Of a stretch of DNA of 39,937 nt, positions 7,144 to 28,448 are shown in pieces. The DNA comes from a virus (lineage: Duplodnaviria; Heunggongvirae; Uroviricota; Caudoviricetes): the IMG/VR virus record IMGVR_UViG_3300045988_182320; one strand, given 5' to 3'. The position numbers and the translations under genes are program-made. The notes under the pieces are model-generated. The model ran no database searches. It was not told where the DNA came from and saw nothing but the letters and a program-made list of their open reading frames with translations. Each line of letters opens with the position of its first letter. Positions within the stretch are counted from its first letter, which is position 1.

Positions 7144-7563
7144 TTATTGGATGATTTGGAGCGGTTTTATCACGTCAGACCATGTCACGGTATAAGTGAT
7201 GAGCGATGAGTCTGTGTGCGAGCTTGGCATATTTTCGGTGCGAGTGAGCACCGGGAAGGGACGCTGGTCTCTGCCCAGAAGATAGGCGCACCCATCGGCG
7301 GTAGTCACCTTGTAGGCGAGCGGGTGAACCTCTGAGTCTATCTGCTCGCTCGACTTGAAGGTGAGCTTTGAAGTGAAAATGCGAACCTTGGACTCAATTT
7401 TGTCGGTGATTTCACAACTCGACGGCATTTTGCACTTTATCTGCTGGAAGACTGCACTTGCAGGAATGATGCAAAGATTTTTGGCTGGGAAGATGACAGC
7501 CTTGAGGTCATCGGCTCTCACGACCTCAATCTTGATGATGTTTTTGATGTATGACATAAGCAT
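7144..7563 (-). CDS. Hypothetical protein
   Basis: 139 aa, ATG at 7561-7563. Confidence 0.4.
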   Translation of the reverse strand: MLMSYIKNIIKIEVVRADDLKAVIFPAKNLCIIPASAVFQQIKCKMPSSCEITDKIESKVRIFTSKLTFKSSEQIDSEVHPLAYKVTTADGCAYLLGRDQRPFPVLTRTENMPSSHTDSSLITYTVTWSDVIKPLQIIQ

Positions 7564-7642
7564 GAAAATTTATCTTTTTGTTTGGAATCGACGGATATTT
7601 CGGTTTTGTTCGGAGTTGTTTGCAGAGACGGAAAAATTTGTA

Positions 7643-8227
7643 TTAATCTTTGCTAAATCTTGTTGTAGATATTAAATTTACGCCTCTTTTTGCGTGTTGA
7701 TCACGCATTCTGTAGAAACATTGGCGTACGGTATCCTCGTAATCGATGCCAATGCCATGCTGTTCGCACCATGCCGAAATGAGCGATGAAAGCTTGCATG
7801 AGCGGTCGGCGATGTCTTTGAGCGAAGCCCAGAGATCCATCTTGAAGAGGTCGGAAATCATCTCTTTGACGGCACGTCTGGCACGTGGCCCGAGGTAGTT
7901 GTACTCTCGCACAGGCTTAGCCTTGGAGTCAGGCAGCTCGATGGCAAGATACTCTTCGGGATGGGTGAGCCATCGGCTCTGCTCGAACTCCTCGTCGTGG
8001 AAGGTATGCTTGACACTTTGGTGCAGTTGGCTGGCATCAGCCTGCTGCATCTCTTGGATGTTCTCTTGGTCGATAGGCGATAGGTTGACAACGGGAGGTC
8101 TGCTGGTGAACTTGCGGAGCACAGCCACCTCGTTGCCGATGGCAGGGAAGACCACTGGGTTGCCATAAGCTCGGTAAGCCCATTGTCTGATGTGGGTAGG
8201 AACTTTGATGTAAACAATTGGATTCAT
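7643..8227 (-). CDS. Hypothetical protein
   Basis: Track ORF begins with TTG at 8239; first ATG (MNPIVYIK...) at 8225-8227, with a -7 box at 8248-8255. Confidence 0.45.
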   Translation of the reverse strand: MNPIVYIKVPTHIRQWAYRAYGNPVVFPAIGNEVAVLRKFTSRPPVVNLSPIDQENIQEMQQADASQLHQSVKHTFHDEEFEQSRWLTHPEEYLAIELPDSKAKPVREYNYLGPRARRAVKEMISDLFKMDLWASLKDIADRSCKLSSLISAWCEQHGIGIDYEDTVRQCFYRMRDQHAKRGVNLISTTRFSKD

Positions 8228-13535: not shown

Positions 13536-14699
13536 ATGACTGCAAAAGAAATTGATTTTTTGAGCTCGCGTGAAATAGTAGGTTTCACGCTGCCTGTGTT
13601 GCATACCAAGGGCGGTTACTGGTATGTTGACTTTACTGCCTTTGACCCTGTTTCGGGTCGGATGAAGCGCAAGAAATATATGCTTAATAGGTACAAGACT
13701 GACCACAAGAAGCGTATGATGGGTACCTTGCTTATCCACAATATCACGGCAAAATTGACCGCTGGATGGAATCCTTGGGTGAATGCCGACAAGTCGAGAC
13801 AATTCACCGAAATACCAATTATCTTTAGTCGTTATCGTGATTATATTAAGTCGATGACCGACAAAAAGTCGATGAAGGAAAAGACCTCTATCGACTACCT
13901 CAGCCGCCTCAAGACTCTGGAGTCTTTCATCACTGAGTGCAAGAGTGTCAAATATGCCTATCAGATTGACCGTGCCTTCGCCATCGACTTCTTAGACCAC
14001 CTGATGTATGACCGTGATGTGAGTGCTACCACAAGAAACAACTATCGCTCTTGGCTTGTCTCCTTCGGCACTTGGCTTATGGATAGAAAATATATCAGCG
14101 AGAACCCTGCCATCGACATCAGAAACATCGCTCAGAAGGAGAAGTTCAGAGACCCTTTGACCGAGGGCGCGCTTAAGAAGCTGAAGACTTATCTCTATGA
14201 TAACAACAGACATTTTCTCTTGGCTTGCCTCTTTGAATATTATACCTTTATCCGACCGAATGAGTTGACGCAGATAAGAATCAAAGATGTGTCGATTGCT
14301 GACCAGACGGTCTTTATCAGTTCTGCCATCAGCAAGAACCGTAAGGACGGACTTGTGGCATTGAACGATGAAATCTTGAAGCTCATGATAGAGCTGAAGA
14401 TATTTGAGCATCCGGGACATTGTTTTATCTTTGGCAAGGGGTTGAAGCCTGGTGAGGAGCGAGCACCTTATAACCAACTGAGAGTAGAGTGGGGCAAGAT
14501 GCGAGATGCTATTGGGTTTCCGAAGGAGTATCAGTTTTATAGCCTGAAGGACACTGGCATCAGGGATTTGGCGAACGCACAGGGTATCGTGGTCGCCAAG
14601 GATCAGGCACGCCACTCTGATATATCTGTGACGAATCGATATATCAAGAACCAGATGAAAGTGAACGAGGAGACCAAGCACTTCAAAGGTGGGCTTTAG
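13536..14699 (+). CDS. int: Tyrosine site-specific integrase
   Basis: 387 aa; C-terminal ARHSDISVTNRYI (His and catalytic Tyr box) and upstream HCFIFGKGL region typical of phage tyrosine recombinases; stop tag at 14697-14699. Confidence 0.85.
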   Translation: MTAKEIDFLSSREIVGFTLPVLHTKGGYWYVDFTAFDPVSGRMKRKKYMLNRYKTDHKKRMMGTLLIHNITAKLTAGWNPWVNADKSRQFTEIPIIFSRYRDYIKSMTDKKSMKEKTSIDYLSRLKTLESFITECKSVKYAYQIDRAFAIDFLDHLMYDRDVSATTRNNYRSWLVSFGTWLMDRKYISENPAIDIRNIAQKEKFRDPLTEGALKKLKTYLYDNNRHFLLACLFEYYTFIRPNELTQIRIKDVSIADQTVFISSAISKNRKDGLVALNDEILKLMIELKIFEHPGHCFIFGKGLKPGEERAPYNQLRVEWGKMRDAIGFPKEYQFYSLKDTGIRDLANAQGIVVAKDQARHSDISVTNRYIKNQMKVNEETKHFKGGL

Positions 14700-16688: not shown

Positions 16689-19600
16689 TTATTTGTTTGA
16701 CTTCATTTTTTGATATTGGCTCCATTGGCGGTCGAAGCCATCGGGGCCGGTGATGACCACGTATGACTTGATGCCAGCATCGAGCTGTTGGTTGAGTCGG
16801 TCGATGGTGTTATGCACGCTATCGAGGGATGCGCCCATCTGTTCGGTGTCGCCACCTGTGACGTTGACCACTGGGGCGACCACGGCTGCGCTGCCTGTGC
16901 CCATGGCACGGCTCACGTCTTGTGCGGTGAGCGAGGCGACAGTGTTGTTGCGCTGCGCCATATCGATGAGCTGCAGGGCAGGGAGGAGCTGAGGATTGTT
17001 GACGGCGTTGTGGTTGGCGACGAACTCGCCAGCGTGAACCACGCCAGCCTCTTTCTTGTAATTGCCAGGACCAGTGAAACCACCCTCGTAATAGCCAGCC
17101 GCCTCTGCCTGGTGCTGCTTTTTGATTGTTGCTATCTGGAGCATGCCCGCTGCGGTGGCGAGACCTGCGGCGATAGGACCAAGGATGTGACCCACCACTG
17201 GGATGGCTGCGGCTGATGAGTAGGCGTTGATGGCAGCCATGGCGGTTGAAGCTATGGCTTGTGCGATCTCTATCTTCATCGCCTTTTTGTTGGCCTTGCT
17301 CTTGGCTGCAGCCACCTCTTTGTCTCGCTTCGCCTCGAGTCGCTTTTTCTTGGCTGAGTTGTTGCCAGCGGCAGAAATCTGCTTATCGTAGTTTTTCTCG
17401 ATCTTGGCGACCTCTAGGTCTGAGCAGGCCTGAGAGTAGGCGGAGGCAGCGCCCATCATCGTGTTGATGCTGCTGAAGGCAGCGCCAGCGATGGAGGCTA
17501 TCTCTTGATAGGTCTCTTTGTTCATCTGCTTTTTGGCATCTAGATAAGCCTGTTCGCTGATGTTGCCATCTCTACGTAGCTTGTCTAGATTATCGTTGAC
17601 CATCTTTTGCTGTTGGATGGCTGCGATGGCACCACCTGCGATTGTGGCGAGGTTGTCGCTGCCCATGGCATTACTGTTGTCGCCGTTGCCCTTGGTCATC
17701 TTTTTGGCGGTGTCGAGGGCGGTGTTGGCATCCTCTTTGCGCTGCTCGTCGGCGGTAGGCTTGTATGAGGCGTATTTGTTGGCGATGCCCATCTTTGTGC
17801 GCTGGTATTCCTCCTCTCTGATGAGACCTGCCTTGTAGATGGCTTCGAGCCCCTGCAGCTCTAGTTGCATCTGCTCTTCGTTGCCGAGCTTGCCGTATTC
17901 TTGGCGCAGCTGAAGGAGTTGTTCGTCGTGTTGCTTCTGAAGGTCGTATTTGCGTTGCTGTTGGGTCAGCTCTCGCTCTTTCTCGATCTGGGCGTACTCG
18001 TCAGATGAGGAGAGGTAGAGGGCTTGCTTTTTGTTGAGATAGTCCTGGTATGAGAGAAAGAGAGCCTCGTTGACGGCATCCTCATTGTGATAGAGGTTGG
18101 AGTCTTTGTTGTAGTAGTCTGCATTGAGCTTCATTTCTTTTTTCTGTCGCTCGGTCTCCAGGGCTTCGAGGTCGGCGGTCTGCTTCTTCTCGTAGTCGGC
18201 GGCGATATTCTCTTTCTCGGCGCTCAATCGCTTGTACTCTTCGCTCTCTGCCTCGCCATACTTTTTGAGGATGTCGAGGCGAGCCTGAAGCCCCTGCTCT
18301 TTGATATTCTTCATCTTCTCGTTGTATTCGGCGAGTCGAATCTGCCCCGTAGCGTAGAGTGTCTTGGCATCTAGCTCTTCGGCTTGGTTGGCTTTCTTGG
18401 CATCGTCTAGCTCTTTTTTCATGTCGGCCTTGCGCTTTGCCTCTGCCTTGCGAGCCGCAGCCTCACGCTTCTTTTTCTCCTTCTCGGCAGCCTTGCGCTC
18501 TTTCTCGGTCATGGTATGACCAGAGGAAGGGGTGACGGGTGTCTCAGTAGTTGCGCTATTGTTTAGTAAATTCTTCTTTACAGTCTTGTTGTACTGTTTC
18601 TGTAAATTAACGTTTTTCTCTAATTGCTGATTATAGAAATTCTCTTCAGCATTGACTTTTTTTTGCAGGCTTAGGTTTGCCTGTAGTCTTTGCGTATGAA
18701 TTTGCTTTTGCTTCTCGTTGCTCTTCAGTGCCTCGTTTTGTTCGATGAGCTGACCTGTCCATCCATCAGCCACGGCATTGCTCTCATATTGCTTAGGATG
18801 AGCCTTGCGCTCAGCATCGACAGCCTTCAGAGAATATCGTATGCGGCTCTCTTTTTGTTTGAGTTTCAGTTTCTTTTTATTGATTTCCACTTTGCGTTCA
18901 TAGATAGCTTCTGCCATGGCAGCATTCTCTAGCTCCTTGATGTAGTTTTGGATGGCAATCTGATTGTCGTTATACAACTTGCCCTCTTTGGAGATAGAGG
19001 CGTGATATTCTGGGACGAGCTTTTGCATATTTGCGATAGCTTGCTTGCGCTCGTCAACGGTATAGGCATTGGAGTGGATAACCTTGTTGAGCATATCGAC
19101 CTTGTTGCGCTCATCGAGGGTAGCATCAGACACTTTTTTGGCGAGGCTGGCTTGAGCCTCTGCCACAGCTCTGTTGTTTTTAGCCTCTTGCGTGTTGTTG
19201 CGCATCGCCTCATTGTAAGATGTTATGGCTTTGTATGCCCCATAGGCAGCCACGCCCACAACGGTGATTACCGTGGCGAGGGCAGCCCATGGATTGGTGA
19301 GACTGGCTAGGCGTGCCGCCCTCATCACCACGATGTAGCCCTGTATGCCTTTTGTGAGATAAGCCCATGTGGCTTGCAGTGCCACTAAGGCAGCACGCAA
19401 AAGGGTAGAAGTTGCAGCACAAGCTTTATCGACAGCTGAAGCGTATTGCACAGCGGCAGATTTAATCTTAATAGCGATTGTCTCCTTGTACCAGAGAGTA
19501 GTACAAACAGCGATGGCTGTTGACAGCACGGCTATTTGTTTGGCATAGGTGACGGTGAAGGTGATGAGTGTGGACATGACCTTTATAGTCAGGCTGAACG

Positions 19601-21035
19601 ACGTGATGCCATATTTCATGGCAGGGATGAGTTTCTCGCCAAGTTCGATGGTGAGGTCTTGGAATCGCTTCTTGGCCTTGTCTAGCTCTGCCTGAACTGT
19701 TGTGTTTTGGGTGTTGAACTCATTGAGCACACTGGTACCATCGGCATAAGACTTGGTGGCGATGTCTTGTGCCTCCCTAACTTGGTCGAGGTGTGTAGCT
19801 ACGGCGGAGAGCACGCCCACGGCACGGGTACCGTTGAGCTGCATCTCTTCGAACATCGGTGCCATCTCTGTGAAACCTCCCTTCGACTTCATCGCTTGCA
19901 TGAACTTCATCAAGCCCTCGTTGGCGTTGGTCTTCATCAGGTTGGAGAACTCCTTGACCTGCATGCCCGCTATCTTGGCAAACTTGGCTGGCTCTTGGTA
20001 CATTTTTGTGATGAGCTGTGAGAAGACTGTGGCGGAAGTCGCCTCCTCTTGCATGTTTTGGTCGAGGGCAGAGGCGAGACCCATCAGCTGTGCCTGGGTC
20101 ATGCCGGCCTGGATGCCGACACCTGAGAGGTCGGCGGTGAAATCGACGATGTAGCCAGCGTTTGCAGATGAGCTTTGTGCCAGCTCATTGACGGCGGAAC
20201 CTGTGGCGAGCATCGCACCACGAAGGCCTTTGGTCTTATCCTCACCAAACATCTGGGCGAGCTTGCCGATTTTATCGACCGCCCCCTTGCCGAGGTCATC
20301 GCCGAGGGCGACATTGATTTTGTCGGCACCATCAACGAACTCCTCGATCATCTCTTTGCTGGTGATGCCGAGGCGACCGGCAGAGCCAGCCAGCTCGTTG
20401 AGCTGCTCACGAGCTGTGCGGGTATCCATGCGCTTGAAGTCCTCGTTCATCTGATGAACCTGTTCGTCGGTCTGACCGGTGTATTTGCGCACGTCTGCCA
20501 TCGACTCCTCCATGTCGGCATAGGCTTGGGCTGCAGCTCTCAAAGTAAGAGTGAGTGTGGTGAGACTGCCCAGTATCTGGGTGAAGGCACCCCAGTTTTT
20601 GTTAAGACCATCCCACATTCTAGAGAACAAACTTCTGGAAGCTTTACCTTCGTCGTTGATGTGCTGCATCTCTGCTCGCACTTGCTTTAATTGCTTTTGC
20701 AGTTTTTTCCATTCGTCTGAGTTGCGCTTGATGGCACCGCTTTTCAACTCTCTGTTGAGAGCCTTGGCGACTAGTTGCAGCTCCTTGTATGATGCAGAAG
20801 AAAGATTGTTGAGAACTTGGTTAACCTTCTCTTGGCTAGTCATGTATGCTTTTGTCTCAGCCTTTAATCTCTTTATCTGTCGTTCGAGGGCTGTTGTTGA
20901 CTCGCCCTTAGCATAAGCCTCGTCTCTGGCTTTTTGCACTTCTTTCAGCTTGTTTTGCAATTCGTTGAGTTTATCCTTAGCCTCTTTGGTGTCAAGAATA
21001 ACTCTGCTAACATGGGTATCTGTATTTGTTGCCAT
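16689..21035 (-). CDS. Tail tape measure protein (putative)
   Basis: 1448 aa; long K/E/A/Q-rich coiled-coil stretches, central hydrophobic segments, Gly-rich C-terminal region (GGFTGPGNY...GVVHAGEFV); ATG at 21033-21035. Confidence 0.7.
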   Translation of the reverse strand: MATNTDTHVSRVILDTKEAKDKLNELQNKLKEVQKARDEAYAKGESTTALERQIKRLKAETKAYMTSQEKVNQVLNNLSSASYKELQLVAKALNRELKSGAIKRNSDEWKKLQKQLKQVRAEMQHINDEGKASRSLFSRMWDGLNKNWGAFTQILGSLTTLTLTLRAAAQAYADMEESMADVRKYTGQTDEQVHQMNEDFKRMDTRTAREQLNELAGSAGRLGITSKEMIEEFVDGADKINVALGDDLGKGAVDKIGKLAQMFGEDKTKGLRGAMLATGSAVNELAQSSSANAGYIVDFTADLSGVGIQAGMTQAQLMGLASALDQNMQEEATSATVFSQLITKMYQEPAKFAKIAGMQVKEFSNLMKTNANEGLMKFMQAMKSKGGFTEMAPMFEEMQLNGTRAVGVLSAVATHLDQVREAQDIATKSYADGTSVLNEFNTQNTTVQAELDKAKKRFQDLTIELGEKLIPAMKYGITSFSLTIKVMSTLITFTVTYAKQIAVLSTAIAVCTTLWYKETIAIKIKSAAVQYASAVDKACAATSTLLRAALVALQATWAYLTKGIQGYIVVMRAARLASLTNPWAALATVITVVGVAAYGAYKAITSYNEAMRNNTQEAKNNRAVAEAQASLAKKVSDATLDERNKVDMLNKVIHSNAYTVDERKQAIANMQKLVPEYHASISKEGKLYNDNQIAIQNYIKELENAAMAEAIYERKVEINKKKLKLKQKESRIRYSLKAVDAERKAHPKQYESNAVADGWTGQLIEQNEALKSNEKQKQIHTQRLQANLSLQKKVNAEENFYNQQLEKNVNLQKQYNKTVKKNLLNNSATTETPVTPSSGHTMTEKERKAAEKEKKKREAAARKAEAKRKADMKKELDDAKKANQAEELDAKTLYATGQIRLAEYNEKMKNIKEQGLQARLDILKKYGEAESEEYKRLSAEKENIAADYEKKQTADLEALETERQKKEMKLNADYYNKDSNLYHNEDAVNEALFLSYQDYLNKKQALYLSSSDEYAQIEKERELTQQQRKYDLQKQHDEQLLQLRQEYGKLGNEEQMQLELQGLEAIYKAGLIREEEYQRTKMGIANKYASYKPTADEQRKEDANTALDTAKKMTKGNGDNSNAMGSDNLATIAGGAIAAIQQQKMVNDNLDKLRRDGNISEQAYLDAKKQMNKETYQEIASIAGAAFSSINTMMGAASAYSQACSDLEVAKIEKNYDKQISAAGNNSAKKKRLEAKRDKEVAAAKSKANKKAMKIEIAQAIASTAMAAINAYSSAAAIPVVGHILGPIAAGLATAAGMLQIATIKKQHQAEAAGYYEGGFTGPGNYKKEAGVVHAGEFVANHNAVNNPQLLPALQLIDMAQRNNTVASLTAQDVSRAMGTGSAAVVAPVVNVTGGDTEQMGASLDSVHNTIDRLNQQLDAGIKSYVVITGPDGFDRQWSQYQKMKSNK

Positions 21036-22864: not shown

Positions 22865-23290
22865 TTATGCGATGTCTTTGTATTCGTCGATGGCATTGAA
22901 GCAAGGACACATCTTCTTCCATTTGGACTTGTCCTTGCCCCAGATGTCACGATGGCCCATTATCTGGGCATCTGGGAATTGTTGCTTCAGTTTGTGGAGT
23001 AGCAAAACGAGGGCGTCTTTTTGCTCTGGTGTGCGGTTGTCGATAGCCTTGCCCTTAGCGTCGATGCCACCGATATAGGCGACGTTGATGGCTGTGGAGT
23101 TGTAGCCCTGCACGCCGTTGCTCACCTTTTCGATGGCTAGGAGTTGGTGGATGCCGCCGTTTGGGGCGATGACGTAGTGATAACCTGGATTGGTCCAGCC
23201 CTTGCGGCGGAACTCTGCCTTGAGGTCGTCGATGGACTGGCTTTGCGACCCTGCGGTGCAGTGAACGAAAATGCGTTTAATCTGTCTCAT
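22865..23290 (-). CDS. N-acetylmuramoyl-L-alanine amidase, T7-lysozyme/PGRP-like (endolysin)
   Basis: IFVHCTAG...GWTNPGYHYVI...GYNSTAINVAYIGGIDAKGK...TPEQ...HRDI...KMCPCF closely parallels the conserved blocks of T7 lysozyme (Amidase_2 family); start placed at ATG 23288-23290. Confidence 0.9.
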   Translation of the reverse strand: MRQIKRIFVHCTAGSQSQSIDDLKAEFRRKGWTNPGYHYVIAPNGGIHQLLAIEKVSNGVQGYNSTAINVAYIGGIDAKGKAIDNRTPEQKDALVLLLHKLKQQFPDAQIMGHRDIWGKDKSKWKKMCPCFNAIDEYKDIA

Positions 23291-23531
23291 TATTTTGCTT
23301 GTTATGATTGAACAATTTGTTTTTGATGTTGTTGAACTTGGCATCGATGGCGATGGCTACGCCGAAGATGGAGCCGGCATACATGAGCGACTGGGCAAAG
23401 TACCAGAGCACATTGTCGGTGACATCACGAGCCTGGGAGGTGAAGTAACTGATGTAAACCAGTATGATGGCGAGGAGGAGCACGGCGATGGCTGAGCCGT
23501 ATTGTATCCATTCTTTAGTATTTCTCTGCAT
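23277..23531 (-). CDS. Putative holin
   Basis: 84 aa from ATG 23529-23531 (MQRNTKEW...), two predicted TM helices and a charged C-terminal tail; overlaps the amidase start by 14 nt. Confidence 0.5.
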   Translation of the reverse strand: MQRNTKEWIQYGSAIAVLLLAIILVYISYFTSQARDVTDNVLWYFAQSLMYAGSIFGVAIAIDAKFNNIKNKLFNHNKQNNETD

Positions 23532-24045: not shown

Positions 24046-25620
24046 TCACGTGAATTTATAGAACTTCTTTTTGAATTTATTGTGAAGCTCTGCGACCACG
24101 GTGGAGAAGGGTAGCTCATCACGACAGAAGTCGTTGAGGGCTTGGTCTATCAAGATCTTGGAGCCTGTATAGAGGTAGTGCTCCAGAGGTTGCCATACCT
24201 CGGTGCCGTCTGGCTCCAGGTGGTCGATGATGCGATAGCGTAGGGAGAGGCGCTTCTTGGGCACCTCTTTGGTGACCATGTGGGTGGAGCCGTCCGGGGC
24301 GGTCTCCTCTTGCTGGATGGTCTCCTTCTCTATCACCGAGTCATCGACCTTGTAGTCTATCACTTGAACGAGGAACTTGTTCTCGTCCTGACCCTCACGG
24401 CAGATGATGTCCTCGATGGACTGCTGCTGTGATTTCTCCATACCGTCAAAAGGCACGCGCGCACGGCGAGCCTTGACGAGTTTACCGAATCTTTCCATAC
24501 CGATTTTCTTATATAAGTTTTTAGAGTTTGCGTGGATGCCCAGACCTAGGCGAGAGGCTGCCTTGAGCTGTATCTGGCGGTCTGTGAAGCCCGCCTTGCG
24601 TAAGTTGGCGATCTGTCTGCAGAGGTCGTGCTTGAACCGCTTGCGCAACAGGGCGTGGTCGGCGTAGATGATCTGACCGCAGAAGTCGATGCCATCGCAG
24701 GTGCGGTGGATACCCCAAGACTTATTGATGGATAGGTGCCAGTCACGGGCGAGGTGCATCACGGCAAGCTCTGCCATCAGCCTGAGGAACACCTTATCCT
24801 CGTGGAGGATGTAGATGTTGTCCATGAAGCGGTAATAATGGCGAAGACCTTGGCGGCAGAAGCGCTCGAACCTATCGTTGAGCGACTTCACTCCCCCGCA
24901 TAGCAGTTGAGCTTGCTGCTGAGTGCGACAGGTAACGAGCATGTCGATCACGTAGCGAGCCTGCCAGTAACGGAACTTGTCGGTGTCTTGGAGAATGTCG
25001 AAGCATCGGAGTGCCAGGTAATCGAAGCGGGCGAGGAAGAGCTGACCCAAGAGTTGGGCGAGCTTGACGCCGAGCACGATGCCTGGATTGAAGCTATCGA
25101 CCACCTCGTCGATGAAGGCGAGGAGCTTGCGGTCTTTGATCTTGCGGCGATATTCACTTTTGAGAAGAGCGTGGTCTATGCTCTGAAAATAATGGTGAAT
25201 ATCCATGGGCAAGCAGTAGAAGGTATCTTGCTGTGGCGAGTTGAAGATGTCTCGCTTGACAAGATTATAGAAATAATGGGTGCCCTTGCCCTTGGAACCA
25301 GCCGGACTGTGGCTGTAGAGTGTCTTGCGAAGGTTATCCTCTACAGGTTGCAGGGCAGCGTGCTGGATGACGTGGTCGATAACGGGCAGCTTGTTGACTT
25401 GGCGATGTTTTGGATAGTCGATATCTTTGGCGACATAGGCTGAGGTATGCCAAGTTTGTTGGGTGTAAGCATCGAGCATGCGTCCGATGTTATGGTCTAG
25501 GTTTGCCTCGAATTTTTGGACCGCACGGCGAGACATCTTTTGTCGGGCGTAGTCATAGAATGCCCGACGAAAGTTGTCTAGTGTCTCGACCTGTGGCGAT
25601 ATGTTGCCAAACCTTTTCAT
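24046..25620 (-). CDS. Reverse transcriptase of a diversity-generating retroelement
   Basis: RT motif A LPMDIHHYFQSIDH; motif B-like GIVLGVKLAQLLGQLFL; motif C position reads YYRFMDNIYIL (non-canonical); primer-grip-like DFCGQII; adjacent to the TR/VR pair. Start placed at first ATG 25618-25620; the track ORF begins with GTG at 25689. Confidence 0.8.
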   Translation of the reverse strand: MKRFGNISPQVETLDNFRRAFYDYARQKMSRRAVQKFEANLDHNIGRMLDAYTQQTWHTSAYVAKDIDYPKHRQVNKLPVIDHVIQHAALQPVEDNLRKTLYSHSPAGSKGKGTHYFYNLVKRDIFNSPQQDTFYCLPMDIHHYFQSIDHALLKSEYRRKIKDRKLLAFIDEVVDSFNPGIVLGVKLAQLLGQLFLARFDYLALRCFDILQDTDKFRYWQARYVIDMLVTCRTQQQAQLLCGGVKSLNDRFERFCRQGLRHYYRFMDNIYILHEDKVFLRLMAELAVMHLARDWHLSINKSWGIHRTCDGIDFCGQIIYADHALLRKRFKHDLCRQIANLRKAGFTDRQIQLKAASRLGLGIHANSKNLYKKIGMERFGKLVKARRARVPFDGMEKSQQQSIEDIICREGQDENKFLVQVIDYKVDDSVIEKETIQQEETAPDGSTHMVTKEVPKKRLSLRYRIIDHLEPDGTEVWQPLEHYLYTGSKILIDQALNDFCRDELPFSTVVAELHNKFKKKFYKFT

Positions 25621-25828
25621 AAGCGGTGTAATGTCTGTGTTGAACGGTGTATAAACTGTGTATAGTCTGAATCGTCTGCTTTTGTACACTTGATAACCTT
25701 CGACCGGATGACCGTGTTGTCATCATCTACCAGCTGTCTTATTAATGTGTATGTATCGCCATGGGGCGAGGATTGACCCTGTAATCTCGAAGTGGGAGCA
25801 AACGACCCACGAAGAGATATGTCTGTAA

Positions 25829-25950
25829 GTTGAGGGCGGCGCCGTAGTTCACATTGGCATTCGAGACAGCATTGTTCACGTTGAGCGTCGAAAGACCGCA
25901 TTGACCACCATTGTTAGCGTTAGCACCACGAAGGCAGACACGAAAACCGG
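25829..25950 (-). repeat. DGR template repeat (TR)
   Basis: 122-nt intergenic copy of the target gene 3' region; 110/122 identical to VR; every mismatch is a plus-strand T in TR, i.e. a coding-strand adenine; the same-frame translation carries Asn (AAC) where the VR varies. Confidence 0.85.
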
Positions 25951-26188: not shown

Positions 26189-27661
26189 TTAGGCCGCCTC
26201 GTAATACACGGGTTCAACGGACCACTCGGATGCTGCTTCGCAGAGGGCGGCGCCGTAGTTCACATAGGCAAACGAGACAGCACCGTTCACGTTGAGCGCC
26301 GAAAGACCGCAAGGACCACCATTGTCAGCGCTAGCACCACGAAGGCAGACACGAAAACCGGATGTAGCGCCGCTAGTATTCCAGAAATAGCTAGTCCAAT
26401 AGGTTGACTCGGATGCGCCCGTGGCGGTCGGGAAGTTCTCCAGATGCTCCATCGAGAGCGTCTTGATAAAGCCTTCGCCCTTGGTCGGCGAGGTGCTGTA
26501 AGCCACCATGCCATCGGCGGAACCTATCGTCCACGTGCCGTAGATGGACGGTGCCACGAGATGGGTCACGGAAGTGTCCTCGTTGCAACGCACCTGCTCG
26601 TCATCCATGTGTCGCCACAATAAGCCGAAGCCATTTTTGTAGCCGAAGAAGGATGGTATCTTGGCGGTATAGACCACGGTGCCATCGTCTTTTTTGACCT
26701 CGTAGCTCGCCTCGCCGCAAGCGTCGCCCAGCTCGATGCCGGCAGACATCGGCACGATAGGGCGATAGCCGTTGTAACCACCCCAATCAGGCATCTGTGT
26801 CACGCCAGCTCCGAGACCACCCTGGTAGAGACCGTTGGCATCTTTTTGGCTGTTGATGGCATCCTGGTCGTAGTGGGTGCCGAAGATGACCCCGAAGAGC
26901 ACGGCGATGGCAGAGGTGTGGCGCATGGTGGTGCAGAGCCAGCCTGTACCATTCTTGCGGGCTGCGGCACGCCAGTATTCGGTAGTCTGGTTGGTGGCAG
27001 CCTTGCCCAGCATGGTGCGGTTGGTGTTATCTAACGTTGAGTCGTTGTTGCCGCCTCGGTAGTCTGTGCCCTCGTTGATGTAGCTCACCAGCTTGCCTGT
27101 GCTGCGCTCTAGCGTGGCGAAGCCAGCGGCGGAGATGCTGCCCACAGGTATCTTGTAGTTGTACTCGCCAGGTATTGGCGTAGGGCTGACCATCTCGTAA
27201 TGGAGTCTGCCCACGGTCTTGATGACCATGTACCACTCCTTGCCCCAGCCCCACTGGTAATGCCCCTCTGAGCCATCGAGCTTGGCTGTCTCGCCGGTGG
27301 CATACTTGTGGTGGTCTTTGGAGTCGAGCTTGCGACGGGAGTGGTCATTCTTGACCAGATAACAGCCCAGACCCAGCTCCGTTGGTAGGGTCTGCAGTAA
27401 CTCTAGCGAGCCCACATAAGTGGCGGCTTTAGGGGTTGCATTGTCGAGGTTCCACACTCGACCACACCAAGGATGCTGTCCCATTTGGACGGCGCTTTTG
27501 AGCGACATCTGCTCAGACCTGCCGGATTTTTTGTCGAAGACCTCGACAATCTTGTCAGTGGCGCTCATGTCTGACTGTGGGAGGTCGTCAACCTGTTGAC
27601 CTCCATCGAAAGCGGCTATGATAGCCTTGAGCTTACTCTCTTCTTCTGATGTTAATGCCAT
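26189..27661 (-). CDS. DGR target protein (putative receptor-binding tail fibre) with C-terminal variable region
   Basis: About 490 aa from ATG 27659-27661 (MALTSEEES...; track ORF starts with TTG at 27709); C-terminus ...GFRVCLRGASADNGGPCGLSALNVNGAVSFAYVNYGAAL is encoded by the VR; stop tta at 26189-26191. Confidence 0.8.
   Translation of the reverse strand: MALTSEEESKLKAIIAAFDGGQQVDDLPQSDMSATDKIVEVFDKKSGRSEQMSLKSAVQMGQHPWCGRVWNLDNATPKAATYVGSLELLQTLPTELGLGCYLVKNDHSRRKLDSKDHHKYATGETAKLDGSEGHYQWGWGKEWYMVIKTVGRLHYEMVSPTPIPGEYNYKIPVGSISAAGFATLERSTGKLVSYINEGTDYRGGNNDSTLDNTNRTMLGKAATNQTTEYWRAAARKNGTGWLCTTMRHTSAIAVLFGVIFGTHYDQDAINSQKDANGLYQGGLGAGVTQMPDWGGYNGYRPIVPMSAGIELGDACGEASYEVKKDDGTVVYTAKIPSFFGYKNGFGLLWRHMDDEQVRCNEDTSVTHLVAPSIYGTWTIGSADGMVAYSTSPTKGEGFIKTLSMEHLENFPTATGASESTYWTSYFWNTSGATSGFRVCLRGASADNGGPCGLSALNVNGAVSFAYVNYGAALCEAASEWSVEPVYYEAA
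26240..26361 (-). repeat. DGR variable repeat (VR)
   Basis: 122 nt inside the last ~57 codons of the target gene; differs from TR only at 12 positions corresponding to TR adenines (TR 25830, 25831, 25855, 25860, 25861, 25872, 25873, 25888, 25901, 25902, 25915, 25920). Confidence 0.85.
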
Positions 27662-27683
27662 AATAAAAATTATATTTAATCGA

Positions 27684-28448
27684 TTAAACAATGCGTAATT
27701 TATCACCAACTTTTCTAAGCTTGCCCGATGCCGACAGGCGAAGGCGAGGCTGGCGCACGGTGATGCTGACCTCTTGCCAGAGCGGTGTGTTGGCGGTGGG
27801 GATGACCCAGAACTTGGTGGTGCCCTCGCCCTTGATGATGAGGTTGCCGCTTGGGTCTGCCACGAGCGAGTCGCCCTCGGCTCGCTGGAAGAGCACGCTC
27901 TGAGGGAGGTAGCTCGGCAGGATCTGCACGGCGATGCGCTGAGCCACCTTGTTGCGTAGGCTTATCTCGGGGAGATAGGTCAGGTTCATGCGAGCTGGCG
28001 CGATGAAGCCTGTGGTTATCTGAGCGGCGAGACCATCCATCTGCGCTATCTTGGCATCGGCTCGCTTGGATGCCGCGTCAGCCTCTGCAGCCTTGGTCTC
28101 TGCCAAGGCTGCCTGTGATGCTGCAGCCTCGCCCTGCTCGCCAGCCGCCTTGGCTGCGCTCTGGGCGAGGTTAGCCGCCTTGTTGGCATCGTCGGCCGCA
28201 CCCTGCGCTCTGACGGTCGGTGTCTTGTCGAGCCACAAGCGCCACTTGGCGTTGGTATCTGAAGGAGTCGTCGTGTTGCCATCCTCTAGGGAGGCGAAGA
28301 CTCCTGACGATGTGTGAACGATGTCGCCCTCGTCGTAGCCCTTGACGGTCTGGCCATCCTCATCTTGATAGGAGTAGCCCGACTGCCAGGTGCCCTGGTC
28401 GGTGAAGGCGACATTGCCCACGATAATGATGTTTGTGTTATCTGCCAT
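27684..28448 (-). CDS. Hypothetical protein (tail-fibre region), Ala-rich central coiled coil
   Basis: 254 aa, ATG at 28446-28448. Confidence 0.45.
   Translation of the reverse strand: MADNTNIIIVGNVAFTDQGTWQSGYSYQDEDGQTVKGYDEGDIVHTSSGVFASLEDGNTTTPSDTNAKWRLWLDKTPTVRAQGAADDANKAANLAQSAAKAAGEQGEAAASQAALAETKAAEADAASKRADAKIAQMDGLAAQITTGFIAPARMNLTYLPEISLRNKVAQRIAVQILPSYLPQSVLFQRAEGDSLVADPSGNLIIKGEGTTKFWVIPTANTPLWQEVSITVRQPRLRLSASGKLRKVGDKLRIV

Follow-up and report, generated by a model that had tools for sequence, protein, structure and literature searches.

Reverse transcriptases (RTs) depend on three catalytic aspartates, and the second aspartate of the Y-x-D-D motif is routinely mutated when a "dead" control enzyme is wanted. 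To our knowledge, all characterized RTs have a catalytic aspartate at this position. A diversity-generating retroelement (DGR) in the IMG/VR virus record IMGVR_UViG_3300045988_182320 (Caudoviricetes), in which motif C of the RT reads F-M-D-N, raises the question of whether an RT with asparagine in place of the second aspartate can still be active. The whole stretch of 39,937 nucleotides that was analyzed is referred to here as the window. The results indicate that this element is very likely a working DGR of a temperate Segatella (Prevotella) copri phage and that it belongs to a large Bacteroidales family that lacks the accessory protein Avd and has F-x-D-N as motif C.

Asparagine in motif C of the reverse transcriptase

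The RT gene lies on the minus strand at positions 24046 to 25620 and encodes 524 amino acids plus a stop codon. The largest open reading frame (ORF) over the motif in a mechanical ORF list was longer (24046 to 25689, minus strand; 547 amino acids with a GTG start), but alignment with homologs, which begin MKRxGxIS, indicates that the true start is the ATG at 25620 (MKRFGNIS...). The longer frame was rejected as an artifact of the ORF listing; its 23 additional upstream residues (25621 to 25689) have no protein conservation and overlap the ACACMG repeats described below. The RT matched PHROG 1423, "reverse transcriptase," at 1.4e-54. Its best sequence match in the PDB, found with phmmer, was the RT of the Bordetella phage DGR (bRT; 8ub7), and 8ub7 was also the top Foldseek fold match of an AlphaFold model built on 79 sequences (mean predicted local distance difference test score, 89), with a template-modeling (TM) score of 0.90 normalized to bRT. 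Pfam yielded no match to the RT (which RVT_1 does not recognize), to the DGR target, or to the ORF downstream, and with NCBIfam the RT had nothing more than a sub-threshold similarity to group II intron RTs.

The original prediction had assigned F-M-D-N at 24817 to 24828 as motif C by eye, and the codons, the phmmer alignment, and the predicted structure agree in confirming F-M-D-N as motif C of a DGR-type RT. The minus-strand codons from 24828 to 24817 are ttc atg gac aac, which encode F265-M266-D267-N268 within HYYRFMDNIYILHED. phmmer pairs RHYYRFMDNIYIL of the RT with RHWARYMDDIVVL of 8ub7, with Asn268 opposite D216 of bRT, and thus the asparagine does stand where canonical RTs have the second aspartate. 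In the AlphaFold model D267 and N268 are located at the turn of a beta-hairpin formed by strands 261 to 265 and 268 to 273. [YF]-x-D-D is absent from the entire 524-amino-acid protein, as had been noted for Y-x-D-D from the ORF; the sole D-D is in the sequence YKVDDS, within the C-terminal domain.

Motif A (D140-I-H-H-Y-F; 25186 to 25203, minus strand) aligned to SDFSKFF of bRT, and both its catalytic Asp140 and Asp267 of motif C are invariant in the 79 aligned sequences. Motif B (G180-IVLGVKLAQ189; 25054 to 25083, minus strand) has the DGR signature with serine replaced by alanine; phmmer pairs GIVLGVKLAQL with GIPIGSLTSQL of bRT, so that LAQ stands opposite TSQ, in keeping with the earlier reading of A-Q. 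The signature that DGR RTs typically carry is [I/V/L]GxxxSQ (PMC3521204), not the QG...SQ previously given as typical. The A-Q variant is already on record among functional-looking DGRs (PMC3521204), and within the RT family studied here S-Q is in the majority, with A-Q or T-Q marking sub-clades. The A-Q of the window RT is unremarkable and is not a family-wide feature. By counting along the same alignment, Leu183 falls opposite I181 and Arg73 opposite R74 of bRT, two residues shown to promote adenine mutagenesis (PMC7826257). The RT belongs with the DGR clade in that bRT is its closest relative in the PDB in both sequence and fold and in that motif B contains L-G-V-K-L-A-Q. The canonical Y-x-D-D, which it lacks, characterizes RTs at large and is not what defines a DGR.

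The altered motif is shared by a large family. A search of 5.8 billion protein clusters recovered 120 relatives of ca. 510 to 550 amino acids, nearly all of which read F-[M/A/V]-D-N; the exceptions with D-D (P0088, P0099, P0107, and P0108) have [Y/L]-A-D-D. More distant, canonical DGR RTs also have D-D, unlike the F-x-D-N family. The original prediction had proposed comparing homologous phages for aspartate versus asparagine at this codon. Among 122 genomic loci fetched from IMG/VR and GTDB genomes, or 123 with the window, F-x-D-N was found in 122, over a range of 29 to 99% identity, and only one locus (L105) had Y-A-D-D. These loci are in phages and prophages whose hosts include Segatella copri, Prevotella, Phocaeicola, Bacteroides cellulosilyticus, Muribaculaceae, Alistipes, and Parabacteroides. 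The asparagine codon is AAC in about two-thirds of the loci and AAT in about one-third, and none of the D-N loci has GAC or GAT. Synonymous drift between AAC and AAT while the residue stays constant indicates that the asparagine is held by selection. Pairwise ratios of nonsynonymous to synonymous substitution rates (dN/dS) of 0.02 to 0.11 show that the RT is under strong purifying selection. As a control, RTs were identified in other phage DGR loci; all 71 that were identified in 75 such loci have Y-x-D-D. The asparagine is an old, conserved, and selected trait of a large family.

When the full-length family was clustered at 50%, D-N and D-D members were mixed among its ca. 12 representatives, with F-x-D-N in P0121, P0122, P0123, P0126, and P0128 and F/L/Y-x-D-D in P0124, P0125, P0130, and P0108. 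The change in motif C would have had at least two origins, or one origin and one reversion, because in a neighbor-joining tree the D-D members separate the main D-N clade from a deep pair with F-M-D-N; the tree is too weak to choose between these histories. The sole consistent sequence correlate of the asparagine is phenylalanine in place of tyrosine two residues earlier. The H-H pair that follows the motif A aspartate was considered as a covariate and rejected, since P0088 and P0099 have H-H with D-D and P0114 and P0115 have S-K with D-N.

F-x-D-N as the family motif C of a DGR RT appears to be new. The searchable main text of DGR and RT papers yielded no earlier account of D-N in a DGR RT, and a literature search on motif names of the FMDN, FADN, and YXDN type returned only unrelated acronyms. 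A megablast search of INPHARED phages gave one match, the unannotated fragment MT835875, and no full-length family member was found in any isolated phage. Apart from this family, Y-x-D-N is present in eight short, mutually distant cluster representatives of DGR-type RTs (P0165, P0187, P0194, P0200, P0206, P0220, P0248, and P0255), which could be either real lineages or defective copies; scanning IMG/VR with three of the eight (P0165, P0194, and P0248) revealed no close relatives, and the loci recovered were the 75 of the control above, with Y-x-D-D in all identified RTs. Another representative, P0256, has Y-M-D-V as motif C.

Diversification of the target gene

The DGR target is a tail protein gene (26189 to 27709, minus strand; PHROG 5302, 2.3e-58) that probably starts at an internal ATG near 27661. 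The variable repeat (VR; 26243 to 26361, minus strand) is at the 3' end of this gene, in frame at codons ca. 450 to 489 of the 506-amino-acid ORF and thus near the C terminus. The template repeat (TR; 25832 to 25950, minus strand) is 119 nucleotides long with 22 adenines, including nine AAY codons in the VR frame. TR and VR differ at 10 sites, all of them at TR adenines, an outcome with a chance probability of 6e-9. The original prediction had counted 12 adenine-specific changes. Ten of these stand, but the remaining two, at 25831 and 25830, do not vary among the six close relatives; they therefore represent a fixed TR/VR boundary beside the shared GC-rich end (ACGGCGCCGCCCTC) rather than mutagenesis. 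The VR frame is intact, as had been stated.

The same pattern extends across the family. In 94 D-N loci, TR adenines are the site of 987 of the 1,040 TR/VR mismatches (95%) but constitute only 18.7% of TR bases. The share of TR adenines carrying a substitution has a median of 0.49 in these loci, close to the density of ca. 50% that experimentally active DGRs of Bacteroides and Bordetella are reported to show (bioRxiv 10.1101/2024.11.15.621889). The window and five IMG/VR contigs have TRs that are 100% identical and flanks that are 97 to 99.9% identical, and yet their six VRs are all different, at different adenine sites. This population-level sequence evidence strongly suggests ongoing mutagenic retrohoming by F-x-D-N elements.

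Several considerations weigh against the interpretation that the window element is a working DGR. VR differences between assemblies record past diversification in the lineage, not activity of the copy in the window. About one-fifth of the related loci have a disrupted RT ORF, and at two loci (L027 and L033) the VR is identical to the TR, with zero mismatches. In HIV-1 RT, D186N has served as a means of disrupting the binding of metal at the polymerase site (PMC1976467), and the D185N/D186N double mutation eliminates polymerase activity (PMC5498913); activity of an F-x-D-N site is thus not a given. Furthermore, both aspartates were 100% conserved in 155 DGR RTs surveyed in 2012 (PMC3521204). 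At L027 and L033, where the TR is at 7640 to 7756 and the VR at ca. 7227 to 7344, the identity of the two repeats could be due to a fresh reset of the VR, to faithful retrohoming or gene conversion, or to assembly collapse of the two repeats.

One alternative to a working DGR RT is that the F-x-D-N protein is a conserved factor that is noncatalytic, or catalytic in a different way, and that, for example, binds and positions the transcript of the TR and the adjoining RT-17 RNA (see below), while the complementary DNA (cDNA) is made by a polymerase or RT of the host or of a co-resident element. Loss of the second aspartate does disrupt metal binding in the best-studied RT, several DGRs often occur in one Bacteroidales genome, and frameshifts in the RT gene are widespread among relatives with VRs that nonetheless appear diversified. 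However, a profile search of all ORFs in the window found no second RT. Conservation extends to the two other catalytic aspartates, the dNTP-contacting arginine equivalent to R74 of bRT, and the [I/V/L]G motif, none of which a protein that is not an enzyme would need to keep. The RT adjoins the TR in ca. 100 loci from many host genera, and family members with D-D, such as L105, have the same architecture and mutation pattern, suggesting that the D-D and D-N forms do the same job. Such a role is considered improbable.

It is less likely still that the DGR is frozen, with a single G-to-A transition in the window phage having killed the catalytic aspartate and left the TR/VR differences as fossils. 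GAC to AAC is indeed one transition, and the HIV-1 RT mutants point the same way. However, the asparagine is present down to 29% identity with turnover between AAC and AAT and no aspartate codon, the RT is under strong purifying selection, and near-identical F-M-D-N phages have different VRs on an identical TR. These findings refute the suggestion in the original prediction that the DGR was recently inactivated. The chance that the asparagine stems from a sequencing or assembly error at 24817 to 24819, which the original prediction had also raised and which has nothing but the rarity of the motif in its favor, is negligible, as the identical 524-amino-acid protein is on record from 32 contigs and the motif is found in more than 100 independent assemblies, including isolate genomes. 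The third suggestion in the original prediction, an unusual active variant, is supported, but as an old family trait rather than as the product of one transition in the window phage.

Proposed catalysis without the second aspartate

By homology with the DGR of Bordetella phage BPP-1, a working RT would copy the transcript of the TR and RT-17 RNA into cDNA, misincorporating nucleotides opposite adenines, and the cDNA would then replace the VR. Catalysis would be carried by the invariant aspartates Asp140 of motif A and Asp267, the first aspartate of motif C. Asn268 might assist in coordinating a metal ion, either with its side-chain oxygen or via a water molecule, or it might be dispensable. 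The likely cost in catalytic rate should be tolerable, given how few cDNA molecules a DGR requires. bRT is slow by nature, and it has been argued that DGRs tolerate low efficiency (PMC7826257). The RT-Avd complex of the BPP-1 element is ca. 10^4-fold less efficient than high-fidelity polymerases, its inefficiency is tied to adenine mutagenesis, and one cDNA may suffice (PMC7826257).

An asparagine at the end of motif C is natural in active RNA polymerases. Negative-strand viruses have GDN and birnaviruses have ADN, although the birnavirus ADN is reportedly less active than the canonical motif (PMC9752661, PMC3121795). These RNA-dependent RNA polymerases are right-hand polymerases like RTs, with the last aspartate of motif C naturally replaced by asparagine. 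However, they are another polymerase class, with a different template and product, and the homology is limited to the palm.

It is possible, although rather doubtful, that F-x-D-N constitutes a distinct catalytic solution, in what would be the first natural RT lineage to work without the second motif C aspartate. Such an enzyme might use metals differently, or slowed chemistry might tune its adenine mutagenesis. According to this more speculative proposal, the RT would be independent of Avd, working with RT-17 RNA and a built-in nucleic-acid-binding domain, and in sister phages it would be gated by frameshifts at a poly-G tract.

A selected asparagine in a large and abundant family of gut phages, in combination with targets that are still diversifying, provides a natural system in which to ask what the second aspartate contributes to catalysis. 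Further questions concern metal preference, speed, and the link to adenine-selective infidelity. The RTs of this family escape Pfam RVT_1 and are mostly annotated as "hypothetical," and filters that demand Y-x-D-D would discard them; therefore, DGR censuses of microbiomes rich in Prevotella and Segatella may be undercounts. A design with a single protein plus an RNA, free of Avd, could also interest those building DGR-based tools for targeted mutagenesis.

Organization of the cassette and its phage

The cassette consists of the target gene with its C-terminal VR, the TR, RT-17 RNA, and the RT, in that order, with ca. 240 nucleotides between VR and TR. No accessory gene (avd, HRDC, MSL, or CH1) was found, and neither Pfam nor PHROG gave a match for the small ORFs nearby. 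Accessory genes are missing from 29% of curated DGRs, and one lineage without Avd is confined to Bacteroides and relatives (PMC5758913). Within the 210 nucleotides between TR and RT there is a structured RNA (25672 to 25773, minus strand) that matches Rfam RF03020, "RT-17 RNA," over model positions 1 to 95 of 95 (59.9 bits versus a gathering score of 40.4; E value, 5e-11). RT-17 was found at the same position, at the gathering score, in 6 of 10 diverse relatives, and by eye its stems co-vary. The original description of the RT-17 family said just that it occurs near RT genes and gave it no function; it was also noted there that RT-10 occupies the interval from TR to RT in BPP-1, and the authors guessed that additional RT motifs might act for other DGRs (Weinberg et al. 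2017; PMC5737381). The location of the window copy, exactly between the TR and a DGR RT, supports the guess that further RT motifs belong to DGRs. The local RT-17 structure surfaced through Rfam alone, and global folding of the TR-spacer RNA was no better than that of shuffled sequences. Likewise, a DNA hairpin 3' of the VR was no better than in shuffles.

Four ACAC[AC]G repeats (25621 to 25671, minus strand) with a spacing of ca. 11 to 12 nucleotides immediately precede the RT start codon. Relatives have two to seven copies, with a mean of 2.0 per 110 nucleotides compared with a background of 0.07 (ca. 28-fold). The repeats could be a protein-binding site or an element for translational control.

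The RT contains two additional regions. A helical insertion of ca. 50 to 60 amino acids between motifs B and C (24850 to 25032, minus strand) is specific to this RT family and increases the spacing from A-Q to F-M-D-N to 76 residues, versus 26 in bRT. In the AlphaFold model helices 197 to 257 cover the insertion. When canonical DGR RTs are matched to the family profile, the match falls into two pieces with the break at the insertion. The insertion probably contributes to the failure of Pfam RVT_1 to find the RT. The second region is a beta-rich C-terminal domain of ca. 140 amino acids (residues ca. 386 to 524; 24049 to 24465, minus strand) that ends in KKKFYKFT. It is conserved family-wide, with an invariant D-S within DYK[IV]DDSVIEK and a near-invariant KKFYKFT end. 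This domain has no sequence relatives in the PDB, and its structural matches, to OB-fold or SSB-like proteins, are weak. The insertion in the palm and the C-terminal domain may together assume the nucleic-acid-handling role of Avd. Family members with D-D also have both regions, and L105 also lacks avd; thus, the insertion, the C-terminal domain, and the absence of Avd predate the change from aspartate to asparagine or are independent of it. In some relatives foreign DNA interrupts the RT. P0111 joins the N-terminal half of an RT to a sequence resembling a transposase (Pfam PF13751), and at L067 the 5' half of the gene is replaced by an unrelated sequence, the RT match starting at residue 265.

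A poly-G tract is located within the insertion, ca. 60 nucleotides upstream of motif C. In the window it is interrupted (GGGGGAG; 24891 to 24897, minus strand; codons G242-G243-V244) and in frame, whereas relatives (L061, L064, L068 to L072, L094, L102, L103, and L123) have uninterrupted tracts of G6 to G9. The tract length that keeps the gene in frame depends on the sub-clade: it is G7 in the closest one, where loci with G6, G8, or G9 shift frame precisely at the tract, and G8 in a sister sub-clade, where G7 gives the frameshift. About 10 disruptions among the fetched loci map to the poly-G site, two of them in isolate genomes (L094 and L102), and the protein cluster formed by the ORF 3' of the frameshift has 3,004 members. 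Three G7 alleles separated by a synonymous distance (dS) of ca. 0.2 have dN/dS of 0.03 to 0.07 in both halves of the gene. Purifying selection on both halves argues against these being decaying pseudogenes. For individual contigs a homopolymer assembly error at the tract may be responsible. The explanation that we favor from the sequence comparisons is that the tract would serve as a reversible slipped-strand switch, or as a site of recoding, that controls the supply of RT.

Comparison with the BPP-1 DGR (bRT-Avd; PDB 8ub7 series) reveals a common plan. In addition to the RT fold, the order of motifs, the R74 equivalent, and the [I/V/L]G signature, both elements have the TR upstream of the RT with a structured RNA between them (RT-10 in BPP-1, RT-17 in the window), a VR at the 3' end of a tail gene, substitutions at adenines only, and an identical GC-rich 3' end of TR and VR. 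However, bRT has Y-M-D-D in motif C and S-Q in motif B where the window RT has F-M-D-N and A-Q. Moreover, bRT is 328 amino acids long rather than 524 and functions alongside Avd, and it is without the insertion and C-terminal domain of the window RT, to which Pfam RVT_1 is blind.

The DGRs of Bacteroides without Avd that form Lineage 3, or Architecture A, of Wu et al. (2018; PMC5758913) resemble the window element, as far as their description goes, in the order target-TR-RT, the lack of an accessory gene, and the restriction to Bacteroidales hosts. The same survey describes C-terminal extensions of RTs of up to ca. 150 amino acids, as in the window RT. The likeness of Lineage 3 to the window family is one of description only, and the main text of the survey does not mention an altered motif C.

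The window represents most of a temperate, siphovirus-like phage, close relatives of which are integrated in Segatella copri genomes. It contains an integrase gene (13536 to 14699, plus strand), and tail genes surround the DGR target. A tape-measure-like protein of 1,448 amino acids (16689 to 21035) and an amidase endolysin (22865 to 23344) are both encoded on the minus strand. Unusually, the tape-measure-like gene is positioned 3' of the lysis genes, with which it shares a strand.

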